A DNA stretch of 64,000 nt from the NCBI GenBank assembly GCA_030265395.1, contig JARFYF010000007.1, positions 21,564,564 through 21,628,563 of the forward strand. Direction: 5' to 3'. Position 1 is the stretch's first letter. Each line of letters starts with the position of its first letter. The notes below the pieces were generated by a model. It did not search any database and was not told the DNA's origin. It saw only the letters and a list, made by a program, of their open reading frames with translations. Shown one piece after another: positions 40,331 through 48,929 of the stretch. Made by a program: the position numbers and the translations under genes. The stretch comes from Rhina ancylostomus. Its lineage: Eukaryota.

Positions 40331-41149
40331 TAATGTTAGCTCGATTGTAATTGCTCATATATGAAACTTCAGATACGTAACCAAAGAACAAAGGAAGTCT
40401 ATTCTGGGGGGAGAAATGCATCATTCCTTTTAACTATTTCTTTGGTAACCTGTGGCAGCTTTAGGATTTAAGAACATGCATCCCTTCTCTGAAAAGTGAA
40501 TATTTGTGAAATGATTACACAAAACATACACACCTGTCGCCACAGAAACAAAAGTGATATAACATCCTGTAGAGGGTATGGTACTGACTAGCAAGTTGGA
40601 GATCACGAGTTCGTATCCCATCATGAAGAGCTGTGAGGTTGAAATTACCAACGTGCCTTTAGAAGACGGATGTTACTAAACAACTGATTCACTAATAACA
40701 GCAGAAATGCTGGAAGAACTCAGACAGGCAAGCAGCATCAGTGGAAAGAGTAACGAGTTAACATTCAGGTCAGTGACCCTTCCTCAGAACTAGACACGAT
40801 TCACTAATATCCTTCCAGCTGGTCTAACCCAAGTAAGACTGTCCCCTACCGTTTACTCTCTGCTGCCTTCTGAGATGTCTGCAAGCCACCTATTTCAGGG
40901 CAAGTAGGATTGGGAAGTAAATCTATCCGAGTTGCCGTCACAAACCTTAAAAACTTTTTGATAAACTCACAGTAGAATGGCCTTGTCTATTGCTGGGCGC
41001 TTCAAAATATGGTAATAATTTGTTTTATATATGGATTCTTAATAAAGCACTTCTGTGCCAAAAAGGGCTGTAGTTATGTAGATAATACCGTATAATCCAA
41101 ATTTAGATAGTGGTTTTGTCTTTATTTTACATTTTTAATCCTATCCCAG

Positions 41150-41269
41150 CTGTCAAGTGGCCCACCAGTGATCTACAATCCACTACAGAAGCAACAGTTC
41201 ACCCAGTTTTCTCAGCTACAATCATCCCAGCAGTCTGAAACTTCCAGCCCTCAACAGCAGGGAGAACAG
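41150..41269 (+). CDS. SUPT20H: SUPT20H exon: LSSGPPVIYNPLQKQQFTQFSQLQSSQQSETSSPQQQGEQ
   Basis: cag| and |gtgcat; 120 nt; resembles human LPGGSLIFNTLQQQ...SPQQPGEQ. Confidence 0.88.
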
Positions 41270-44092: not shown

Positions 44093-44195
44093 CAGAATTC
44101 TGACCAGGCTCCAACTAGCCAGGAACAGGCTTTGACAGCTCAGCAGACTGCAGTCATCAACCTGGCAGCAGGTTTTGTGCCTCCACAGGCTGCAG
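44093..44195 (+). CDS. SUPT20H: SUPT20H exon: (Q)NSDQAPTSQEQALTAQQTAVINLAAGFVPPQAA; tandem acceptor at 44093/44096
   Basis: cag|CAG| and |gtacat; phase 0 to 1; resembles human TSQEQALSAQQAAVINL. Confidence 0.92.
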
Positions 44196-45078
44196 GTACA
44201 TGCTATAAAACTTTCATCTTCTGACTTGTGTTCCTTACTTACTTCACTTCTGTCCTGAACAACTTTCTTTCAGAACTGTCACTCACTCACTGTCTAGCTG
44301 CCTTGTTATTGCACTTCTGCTAACTACTGGTTTTTCCTTATAGTCTTATCATGGCACTTCCAGTGAGATACAGATTGCTTTGGCAAAGTGCACTATAGTA
44401 AAGGGACTGCACCAACACTTCAAAAATCTGAATGCATGTATTTATTTTGTTACATTTAACCTTTATCCCCTTGAGCTTACCCTACCTTCCACAACCCCCC
44501 CCACCCTTAAAAATGTCTGTTACTTTGGTTAACAATTCCTCTGAGTTTTAGGGAGTGCACCAATTAATTTACCTTTGTCTTTCATTTCCTAATCATATCA
44601 TTAGATCTGACCAATCAATTGATTAGCATGCATATTTTCATCAAAGTTGTACCTAGAGTGTGCATTATTTTACTGAATTGGAATTCAAATAAAACTATTA
44701 CATTCATTCAAGCACAGCATGCATTTTAAAACTAAACTGAATATAACAAACAAGTTTGCCTAAATTAAAATTGGCTCTTGTAAATTGAAACTAATGCTTC
44801 TCAATCAAATCCAGTCACTTGCAAAAAATTGGACTGAACTTCTACTAATATCCATTAGAATACTTCCAAATGAGAAAATTTGTAAATGAAATACTCAGTA
44901 TACTTGTCATAGCTTTTACTCATACTACATTCCATAAATATTTAGCTGTGTTTCTGATACAAACTACCAGGTGAATTCTACTGATCCCCTTTTGTTACAA
45001 TCTTTCCCTATCCTGATTTCTTCCCTCATTTGATCCTCTTGTTGTCCCTCCCTTTTCCCCTACCTGTCTCCCCTGTAG

Positions 45079-45203
45079 TGTTGTCTCAGCTTGGCTCTGC
45101 TGTGAACAGACCTGGGCAAAGCCTCCCTCAGCAGAGACTCCAGCTTACATCTGCCTTACAGCAGCAACAGCAACAAGCCTTGCAGCAGCAGCAACAAATA
45201 CAA
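45079..45203 (+). CDS. SUPT20H: SUPT20H penultimate cassette exon (125 nt, frame-switching): VLSQLGSAVNRPGQSLPQQRLQLTSALQQQQQQALQQQQQIQ
   Basis: Long polypyrimidine tract with tag| and |gtaatc; phase 1 to 0; resembles human VLSQLGSAENRPEQSLPQQRFQLSSAFQQQQQQIQ. Confidence 0.9.
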
Positions 45204-46079
45204 GTAATCCAGCAACTTGGCTACAGTTACATGAAATATTTAAAAAAATTCTCAGCTCCAAAATAAAGAAAGGAGAAAAGTCTGAGGTGCTGCCCAAAAA
45301 ACTAAAATTATTGGTTGTTTGAATCCAAGAGGGTTTGGCAGTTGGCAAACAAATTGGGTGATCAAGTTACAATTATCTAATCACTTTGGAGCATTGAATT
45401 TACATTGACATCCTAGCCATCCACCTCTTTCTCTTGTATTTATGCTCAAGAAGTGCTTGTGGCACATCGAAAGATAAGAACCACTGCAGGCGATGTAAGA
45501 ATACTTCCCATATCCTCGACCCAGAAAGATTTTGGCATGCCTGCAGTTGGAATAATCTTAAAAGTCAACTTGCTTATCCTTTTATACCTTCTGTATACAA
45601 AGTGAATTATGAAAATACCTTTCCAGAAAAGATCCTTGAGCTCAATGTTTTCATTACATTTTGTCATGGGCTACATTGTTTAACTTGGGATATGCCACTC
45701 CAATACAAAAATATTGAGCCAAGCACAAATGCCTCTTAGTTGCTGACTTGCTGCGGTTCTGTTACCAGCTACATCTGCATCCAACTGGAAATACTAAAGC
45801 ACTTTTAGGTCAGACATTGACTAACAAGCATGCAGTTAGCTCTGCTGGAACAACTGTTTGTGTGTCAAATTGTCTCAACTCTTCTGTGCCACTGGTGCTG
45901 CTTGACTGTAGTCATTAAGTTTGTGGGTTTAATTTTCTTTTCCTGTTTCCATCCTTAAACATTTCCAAAATGTTTAAACTGAATCATCTCGTTATGTTGA
46001 GATATCAGTTTGATTCATTTGAAAATTTTCCTTCAAGTCTTATAATTATGGTCTTCTCTTCCCCTTTCTTTCCTGACAG

Positions 46080-46180
46080 CAGTTGCGATACTTGCAGCAT
46101 CAAATGGCTATAGCAGTTCAAATTCGTCAACAGCAGCAGCAGCAGCAGCAGCAGCATTCAAGCAGCCAGTCAAAAAATAA
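46080..46180 (+). CDS. SUPT20H: SUPT20H terminal exon, frame used with the cassette skipped: AVAILAASNGYSSSNSSTAAAAAAAAFKQPVKK*
   Basis: Joining 44195 to 46080 in phase 1 gives an open frame to TAA at 46178-46180; resembles the remembered human isoform end AVAILAASNGYGSSSSTNSS...AYRQPVKK. Confidence 0.85.
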
Positions 46181-46217
46181 AAGGAAAAGAGGGACTCCAA
46201 CTCCACCAAAATCATGA
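46080..46217 (+). CDS. SUPT20H: SUPT20H terminal exon, frame used with the cassette included: QLRYLQHQMAIAVQIRQQQQQQQQQHSSSQSKNKRKRGTPTPPKS*
   Basis: cag| at 46079; TGA at 46215-46217; resembles human QLRFLQHQMAM...SQSKSKMKRGTPTTPKF. Confidence 0.9.
   Translation, partial: QLRYLQHQMAIAVQIRQQQQQQQQQHSSSQSKNKRKRGTPTPPKS
46131..46154 (+). repeat. Coding (CAG)8 repeat in the SUPT20H terminal exon
   Basis: Read directly from the sequence. Confidence 0.95.
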
Positions 46218-46951: not shown

Positions 46952-47956
46952 AAAACATAATTCTATTAGTCAAAGCCTAGGTTTTCTGATTGCAAATAAT
47001 TTTGCTGTCCATTTTTACCATAAGTTTTAATAGATTTTAAACAGCATGTAGTTTTCAAATAGTGCAAAATTACAAGAATCAGGAGGGGGTTTGGGGCACA
47101 CAGTAAGAATGACAATGTAAAAAGATTAATCTGTGAGCCCACCAATGAAGAGGGACAGCAGGTAAGTGAATAAAAGGGTTTAAGAAGAAAAATGTAGTAG
47201 ATCATGATCCTGATGTTTCTGCTCTGGATCAATTGATTAGGGAAGGTAGGGGGAAAAAAAAAATCAGCTAATGGATTGTGGTTTTATAAGATTGGAGAAA
47301 ATTTTTTAGTTAGGAAATAATGCCTTCAATATCAGATTCCTGGAAGATAGTGTTGAAATATCATTTTACAAAAGGATAAAAACAACATGAGCAAGATCAG
47401 ATACAATATCAAGATTGAGAGGTGCAGAACACAAGTAGAACATAGATTTTGGTAATTGACTGGAAATGAGAAATGTTCCATTAAGGATCAACTGATGCAC
47501 TGAGATTGTAAGTCAATACTTTCAGTATGAGCATGTGACTTTAAATTGCCCAGGTCATGGAAAACTTACTTTATGCTCACTTTTATTCCTTTAAGAAAGA
47601 AAAGGATATTTGTCAATACTTCATTATTTTAAAACAGATGAGGAAATACTTACTTAATTACTCAGCTAATACCTTCATCAGCCACTATTCCAGTTGCATT
47701 TCTGTGGTAACTGAAAAGTCTTATTTTTAAGATTCTACCCAGAATCATGTTCTTTCCTTAATGTGGTGCTATGATAATTTCATGCTCTTTGATAACCACT
47801 TCTGTGATTAGTAAAGGCAGATTAACCAACCAAGGCAGCTTTTGAATGACATGTGAAAGCATCTTTCATCAGCTGTATGAGATCAGACCAAAATATCCAA
47901 TGAAAGGCTCTGCTAATTTGACTACTTGCTGAAACTGGCACTTCATACAAACACAC

Positions 47957-48063
47957 CTGGTTTATGTACAGCACAAAGTCTATCATCTTCATCAGTTACT
48001 ATTGTAGCCATCCCCGATGCCAAGGCCTCCTCCTCAGCTGTAGGATCTACAATAAATATTGTG
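47957..48063 (-). CDS. EXOSC8: EXOSC8 exon: [36 protein letters not shown]
   Basis: aag| and |gtgtgt; phase 2 to 1; VDPT.EEE motif of RNase PH domain 2. Confidence 0.95.
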
Positions 48064-48929
48064 CTTTTACAAAAAAAAGAAAAAAGTTATCAGAAGGCAA
48101 TTCAAGTCAAAGGAGCCAATTCTGTATACAATGGTTCTATACCATTTGGTAACTTAATCAAGTTATCAATGATAGTATTTTAGAATATAGATAGACATAG
48201 ATGATAATATTACAAATTTATACCTTCATGGGTACATGTAAAACTCAGTGCCTTTAAAAGAATATCCATGTTAAAATATTCATTATATTGACAAACAAAT
48301 GTTTTGACAAATAAATGTTCACCAAACAGTAAAATAATATGTTATAATACCATTCATAGTTGTCTTAACAAAGTACAATAACATGCCTTGAGTGTATCTG
48401 GCATATCAATAAATCAGCAAACACACGTGGTGATTTTTGGCGGGGGAGGTGGTGGGTGGAAACCAACTGCTGTAGTAATGCAAGGTATTGTGACCTTCAA
48501 GTTTTTTTTATACTCATATTACTGAAAGAAATTAATATCTTTTCAGTGTTCTTTCAAGTGGTAAATCCTAACGTCTTTTTCATTCAGTTATACAGTTTTT
48601 AATAAAAACCATAACAATGGAGGTCAGGATTATATGCAATAATGGATGCTGGCCATTCATCTCATCCCAGATCACTCTTATAGATAAAAGAAACTTTTAT
48701 AACATAACCCATGAAACCTCAACCCATTTTCAGGTATTTAAATAGTAAAAGTAAAATATGATTTTTAAATCTCACCACTAGAAGAACCTAACAGGTTAAA
48801 AGCTGATAATATGAAGGATTGCAATGCCTGTTAAACATTGGAGGGTGGCAAAAATAGCCACACCCAAACAATAATTCTTATTCAAACAAGTCTTCAATAA
48901 TACAATCTCCACCTTCACAATCAGCAATT

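Follow-up and report, generated by a model that had tools for sequence, protein, structure and literature searches.

The last exon of jawed-vertebrate SUPT20H is open in two frames and is likely a conserved switch of the C-terminal tail

Introduction

Last exons that can be read in two frames, depending on the splicing of the exons before them, are already a described class. According to the available parts of Preussner et al. (2020; PMC7392665), splicing-accessible coding 3'UTRs occur in over 10% of genes, and the 'Ultimate' class of such events is defined by at least 20 new residues, with at least 10 beyond the stop of the other frame. Ancient dual-coding regions, comprising 105 transcript pairs from 82 genes, have been reported by Tress et al. 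(2026; bioRxiv 10.64898/2026.05.28.727796, in the available part of the preprint). The human event in SUPT20H is itself known, being tabulated in the supplements of two papers: a supplement row of Preussner et al. (2020; PMC7392665) gives RNA-seq support for skipping of the exon that is called A below, and a supplement row of PMC13247117 gives RNA-seq support for exon B as a cassette of 104 nt with 98 dual-coded nt. SUPT20H (p38IP) has been reported to bind p38, GCN5 and ATG9 (PMC6405192, available part). In a search that lay largely outside the subscription literature, no paper on the SUPT20H tails, their age or polarity was found, and neither an experiment on one of the tails nor peptide evidence for one; the supplements of PMC13160074 did not contain SUPT20H.

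Here, we have analyzed this gene in a ray, Rhina ancylostomus. The window, that is, the whole stretch of DNA analyzed, comprises 64,000 nucleotides (GenBank assembly GCA_030265395.1, contig JARFYF010000007.1, positions 21,564,564 to 21,628,563 of the forward strand), and a first-pass annotation had drawn attention to its SUPT20H last exon. On the basis of the results below, we consider it probable that this exon, with two open reading frames between which the cassettes A (+1) and B (+2) choose, is a conserved switch of the C-terminal tail.

Results

The SUPT20H locus and its terminal exons

The window contains the 3' three-quarters of SUPT20H, whose exons matched sawfish and devil-ray proteins at 77-100% (tblastn). 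The matching ray SUPT20H protein contains the Spt20 SEP domain (PF12090, Pfam) and matched human SUPT20H in PDB with an E value of 0, and Pfam had no family for either the Gln tail or the Ala tail described below. The last exon had one match in this genome and is therefore single-copy, which ruled out a retrocopy here; an artefact reading of the two-frame exon was also rejected. The 3' ends of SUPT20H and of the EXOSC8/RRP43-like gene, which lie tail to tail, may overlap, and EXOSC8 is presumably the tail-to-tail neighbour of SUPT20H in human as well. Coordinates of all features are listed in Table 1.

Table 1. Features of the SUPT20H 3' region, given as positions within the window
Feature	Positions	Strand	Description
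Upstream exon U1	41150-41269	+	120 nt, phase 0; donor of the path skipping both cassettes (tblastn, splice sites, loose contig ends)
Cassette exon A	44096-44195	+	100 nt, shift +1; GT donor after 44195
Cassette exon B	45079-45203	+	125 nt (2 mod 3, shift +2); Gln-rich; AG acceptor and GT donor
Conserved intron stretch after exon B	45204-45394	+	~190 nt; candidate splicing-regulatory element
Last exon, Gln/basic frame	46080-46217	+	45 aa; ends in KRKR cluster and TPTPPKS; stop 46215-46217
Last exon, Ala frame	46080-46180	+	Split first codon, read from 46082; 32 aa ending in KQPVKK; stop 46178-46180
(CAG)8 tract	46131-46154	+	8-unit CAG/GCA; read as Gln or as Ala depending on the frame
EXOSC8/RRP43-like exon	47946-48086	-	Tail to tail with SUPT20H

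The last exon starts at 46080, after an AG, and has 98 dual-coded nt; its third frame meets a stop at 46111-46113. Both this exon and exon A have tandem NAG-NAG acceptors (46080/46083 and 44093/44096, respectively), at which one codon is gained or lost with the frame unchanged, so that use of 44093 would add one codon. The two tails differ in composition, the Gln tail having eight Lys and Arg residues, one KRKR cluster and two Ser/Thr-Pro sites, and the Ala/Ser tail having three Lys and Arg residues. The coordinates and translations given by the first-pass annotation proved exact, including the 125-nt, non-triplet length of exon B and both last-exon frames being open to their stops. That annotation had explained the two tails by a single frame-switching cassette, exon B. 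Exon B indeed shifts the frame, but exon A is a second frame-shifting cassette, and the Gln tail can also be reached by skipping both. When all splice paths were computed, U1-last and U1-A-B-last led to the stop at 46215 and the 45-aa Gln tail, U1-A-last led to the stop at 46178 and the 32-aa Ala tail, and U1-B-last ran into an early stop (45103-45105) lying 98 nt upstream of the last junction.

It was also observed that an AATAAA hexamer (46176-46181) overlaps the stop codon of the Ala frame. In two sequencing runs of relatives (X7 and X11), a change at 46181 disrupts the hexamer and leaves the Gln-frame residue as it is, and AATAAA is therefore probably no poly(A) signal. In addition, two Mobula birostris models (P0082 and P0086) arrive at the Ala tail in the absence of exon A by translating the U1 stretch 41149-41268 in a different frame, which in the window is interrupted by a stop at 41236.

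Splice junctions and the two-exon rule

Junction evidence was taken from contigs of relatives' sequencing runs (4 of the 24 listed, from three studies), which are presumed to be RNA and carry no level information. The GT-AG junction joining exon A directly to the last exon (44195-46080, Ala frame), which the first-pass annotation had named as the skipping junction to be looked for, was present in three of the four runs (X4, X7 and X11), whereas the other two junctions that it had named for comparison, 44195-45079 and 45203-46080, were found in none of the four. The path skipping both cassettes, in which the end of U1 stands directly before the last exon (Gln frame), was seen as loose ends in two of the four runs (X1 and X7); in all, such loose ends placed the 3' end of U1 ahead of 44093 and of 46076/46080. 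No splice junction involving exon B occurred in the four runs, where B was covered only by one low-depth X7 contig extending into both introns, and this low cover is not evidence of absence.

Annotated proteins gave a wider view of the same rule. We examined 421 vertebrate proteins, a set shaped by the queries used and with tails assigned by motif, which has no bearing on isoform abundance; 36 had other ends, and of the 385 that could be classified by tail, 375 obeyed the rule set by A and B, with 10 exceptions. Those following it comprised 179 Ala tails with A only, 168 Gln tails with A and B, and 28 Gln tails with neither.

Conservation of both tails

Both tails are annotated in rays, skates, sharks, chimaera, sturgeon, paddlefish, bowfin, eels, zebrafish and other teleosts, turtles and human. 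Ala tails were further found in a caecilian, a frog, a snake and many mammals; all seven caecilian models seen had the Ala tail or another end and none had the Gln tail. The human tails that the first-pass annotation had given were right, as both occur in a paper's supplement and in two PDB entries, whose sequences have 779 and 811 aa: the Gln tail of the window matched the human 779-aa form with an E value of 8e-9, and its Ala tail matched the 811-aa isoform 3 with an E value of 5e-5.

If two tails are encoded by the same bases, a single DNA must be able to give both. Tail pairs from the same species were compatible with one DNA at a +2 offset, almost uniquely, in 25 of 26 species, the misfit being the pair from Coregonus, which probably reflects two paralogues. 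Among 600 control pairings across species, only six fitted one DNA, all of them between close kin, and when applied to the window the method returned the true codon at 33 of 33 positions. The claim that both frames have been kept across jawed vertebrates was thus borne out, with both tails occurring from cartilaginous fishes to amniotes. Early stops and non-triplet indels in one frame, which had been put forward as signs against it, were looked for as well: the overlap ranged from 28 to 41 codons among species and always differed by triplets, and the Ala stop stood at the same Gln-frame codon (a Ser/Asn-Lys codon pair) in 25 of 26 sequences, that of Conger coming one codon early.

Two further observations concern gene copies. 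Two SUPT20H paralogues occur in eels and tarpon, and the Gln tail is kept in each of them (P0430-P0441 and P0476). Diverged mammalian copies have a decayed Gln-frame tail (leopard, fruit bat and horse) or a decayed Ala tail (hamster; P0275, P0276, P0279 and P0319); these copies may be retrocopies, in which case the two kinds of tail would fit retrocopying of both mRNA forms.

Selection on the two frames

An open second frame is unremarkable by itself. When the Gln frame was recoded at random with synonymous codons, the second frame stayed open with P ~0.38 for the window and in 38-72% of recodings among sequences, and the Ala stop fell exactly at the observed codon by chance with a probability of 0.14-0.25 per lineage; conservation across species exceeds chance. 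The recoding frequencies are in line with the alternative that the Ala frame is merely an off state: selection would act on the basic tail and on splice signals, and the Ala peptide would do no harm and have no task beyond ending the protein before the basic motif.

Null tests were run in which only one frame is selected. The tests covered three alignable blocks chosen by eye (19 codons), with third positions assumed to be saturated; Salvelinus and Conger were left out, and no mammal was included because the mixed rodent tail pair did not fit one DNA. On DNA inferred from peptide pairs, with small numbers and with lineages that are not independent, seven distant lineages were compared with the window. 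Where the Gln frame permits alternatives, they kept the Ala residue at 12-15 of 13-16 sites (expected 5.8-7.0; P 4e-6 to 9e-4); where the Ala frame permits alternatives, they kept the Gln-frame residue at 11-15 of 15-17 sites (expected 5.1-5.8; P 7e-7 to 5e-3). Both single-frame nulls were rejected in all seven lineages (P 7e-7 to 5e-3), a result that nucleotide-level constraint would give too. Position 2 of the Gln frame, which is the wobble position of the Ala frame, was variable in 8 of 19 columns, compared with 4 of 19 for position 1; codon position 2 is normally the most rigid.

The 31 distinct alleles bear on the off-state reading from both sides, since nine altered the Ala residue and spared the Gln frame, as that reading would allow, but seven altered the Gln frame and spared the Ala residue; both were changed by the remaining 15. 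It is also in line with an off state that the conserved N-terminal block adjoins the acceptor, a place where splicing enhancers are expected. However, the NG[YH] and [KR]QxxxK blocks are found 7 and ~25 codons from the exon start and have persisted despite indels in the interval, and the Ala junction was the commonest in the relatives' runs examined. We therefore regard a mere off state as unlikely, and infer from these comparisons that neither frame alone accounts for the conservation and that both peptides are under selection.

Exon B, its downstream intron and NMD

Since both tails end in the last exon, the first-pass annotation had expected no NMD. The position rule behind this expectation holds for the two paths that it named, but not for B without A, whose early stop is a predicted NMD trigger; the chimaera RefSeq model X7 ends at exactly this stop. 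In human, the B event changed on UPF1 loss: in the available part of PMC13247117, depletion of UPF1 in HCT116 was accompanied by a dPSI of 0.30 (a positive value meaning more inclusion by the worm convention of that paper) and a gene log2FC of 0.93, and the event was classed as NMD-sensitive. B-without-A transcripts and an indirect effect are both candidate explanations of this change.

Ray and chimaera share conserved sequence in the intron following exon B, with breaks of frame, as expected beside a regulated exon: a chimaera read-through model gave matches to it of 34.3 and 26.6 bits in two different frames, compared with at most 22.7 bits for 40 control stretches. The first codons of this intron recur in teleost and pangolin read-through models. 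In skates, three RefSeq models (P0116, P0118 and P0123) include B but not A, and their reading passes into the last exon in its third frame (46081-46113; window stop 46111), where a triple-coded stretch may exist.

These features raise the alternative that the system serves dosage control by splicing-coupled decay, with exon B and its downstream intron acting as a conditional poison exon and the tails being secondary. The early stop of B without A, the response of the human B event and of the gene to UPF1 depletion (PMC13247117), the conserved intron and the steady-state contigs without spliced B are all as such a poison exon would have them. Nevertheless, it leaves the conservation of both last-exon peptides unexplained, the annotated skate models read B alone into the third frame without that stop, and the UPF1 effect may be indirect; as the main role of the locus, decay appears rather improbable to us.

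The CAG tract

The first-pass annotation had also proposed that the CAG tract changes length in both frames at once. In rays and sharks this stands, the longest Gln and Ala runs being Q9/A8 in the window, Q7/A6 in sawfish and Q3/A3 in Narcine and chimaera, but the tract itself is not conserved. The longest runs were Q9/A3 in the basking shark (Cetorhinus) and Q2/A2 in turtles; turtles have an Ala run (up to 5) in the Gln frame, as does human, neither with a CAG tract, and in teleosts the run is placed before the NGY block, not after it. A conserved poly-Gln/poly-Ala switch was rejected on the absence of the tract from turtles and human. That the tract is a functional element setting poly-Gln and poly-Ala length jointly is very hard to credit, since the co-variation in rays and sharks is what a shared triplet repeat must give, turtles and human do without it, long shark Gln runs yield mixed Thr/Ala and the teleost run lies elsewhere. 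We infer that it is a variable, lineage-specific and tolerated spacer between conserved blocks.

Which frame came first

The polarity of the two frames was surveyed in 150 representatives of the SPT20 family, 20 of which were looked up by name. A basic cluster with a TPTPP end, resembling the Gln frame, was found in SPT20 of amphioxus, starfish, chiton, oyster, clam and pond snail; at the very end, the Gln tail and amphioxus SPT20 were identical at 12 of 17 positions, and the nemertean protein kept only the basic cluster. The Ala motif occurred in none of the 10 proteins of non-vertebrate type that were checked (7 of them named), and Ala-like matches among the 150 representatives were confined to a hamster, a snake, a frog and one fish-like protein. 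Neither lamprey nor hagfish was recognized among the matches, 20 of the 150 representatives having been looked up by name. Because the basic TPTPPK end is present in amphioxus, starfish and molluscs and the Ala motif was not seen there, it is likely, from a sparse sampling of invertebrate isoform sets, that the basic tail is the ancestral SPT20 end and that the Ala frame was overprinted after the split from amphioxus and before the jawed-vertebrate ancestor.

Discussion

In the switch that we favour, transcripts with both cassettes or with neither would end in the basic tail, A alone would give the Ala/Ser tail, and B alone would lead to the early stop. The basic tail would be the ancestral end, with the Ala frame overprinted on it before jawed vertebrates diverged, and regulated splicing would replace a basic end with Thr-Pro sites by one that is short and neutral, at the terminus of a long, low-complexity tail predicted to be disordered. 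In the available parts of the SAGA structure papers, isoform differences of SUPT20H lie mainly in disordered regions and the tail is outside the parts that bind the SAGA core and TRRAP, so that assembly of SAGA should be unaffected by the exchange. The swap could alter partner binding, phosphorylation or turnover of SUPT20H. Import is unlikely to depend on the basic tail alone, because a predicted NLS around Lys25, near the N-terminus, is common to both human forms (PMC6405192, available part).

It should be noted that the forms used in SAGA and p38IP work, the reference 779-aa form and the 811-aa form modelled in HeLa SAGA, end in different frames and differ by a conserved terminal motif. Mass spectrometry of HeLa SAGA listed isoforms 3, 2 and R4GND2 and not the 779-aa form, without peptide detail (PMC8660637, available part of supplement 1). 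The 733-aa p38IP model named in PMC6405192 probably has the Ala tail, since the 733-aa mammalian proteins in our comparison do. Variants in the SUPT20H last exon carry two protein readings.

More tentatively, and with considerable doubt, we suggest as a possibility that a basic, Thr-Pro-rich SPT20 end as old as bilaterians was made optional in jawed vertebrates by an overprinted frame together with two frame-shifting exons, which would now determine its presence on this scaffold subunit of SAGA. If this is true, the studied forms (733-aa p38IP and HeLa isoform 3) appear to be motif-less Ala forms, and the function of the ancestral motif would be unexplored and switchable by tissue.

The closest known system is the human gene itself. 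The human 779-aa protein (PDB 8H7G chain D) and isoform 3 of 811 aa (PDB 7KTR chain C) have the same two tails, the same order of A, B and last exon and the same phases as the ray. Exons A and B measure 106 and 104 nt in human and 100 and 125 nt in the ray, whereas the two frames are identical in length in both (135 and 98 nt). In contrast to the ray, the middle segment of the human exon shows an Ala run when read in the Gln frame and a Ser run when read in the Ala frame; the CAG tract is missing, and the basic cluster is KMKR.

Compared with the class of Preussner et al. (2020; PMC7392665), the ray locus is alike in that skipping of a penultimate exon shifts the frame and both stops lie in the last exon; its exons fall within the skip and length limits of the 'Ultimate' events (A 100 nt, B 125 nt, 45 residues in the Gln tail, of which 11 run past the Ala-frame stop). 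In the available part of that work, human SUPT20H stands in the human table, its row covers the exon-A skip only, the mouse sheet is without SUPT20H, and conservation is treated among mammals only. Unlike that class, the long frame here is likely ancestral and not a 3'UTR novelty, and it is not proline-rich overall. The genes of Tress et al. (2026; 10.64898/2026.05.28.727796) resemble SUPT20H in C-terminal dual coding across jawed vertebrates with selection on both frames, and two of the properties required there were found here too, with both frames and stops kept (25 of 26) and purifying selection on both suggested by the inferred DNA. According to the available part of that preprint, however, those genes are mostly neuronal, whereas SUPT20H is a subunit of a general transcription co-activator; SUPT20H is not named in its main text and may stand in its figures or supplements. 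PMC13247117, in its available part, lists the human 104-nt cassette as NMD-sensitive and so outside its NMD-resistant dual-coding class: the 98 dual-coded nt exceed the threshold of at least 60, but the PSI change of 0.30 is above the limit of less than 10% on NMD loss.

Such exons have been catalogued by the dozen, and SUPT20H represents no new class. What is new is the logic of two exons in a ray, the fit of both frames to one DNA across vertebrates, and the basic tail as the likely ancestral end. SUPT20H offers a clean example of overprinting that can be dated and that affects a core transcription co-activator; its polarity can be read from invertebrates.
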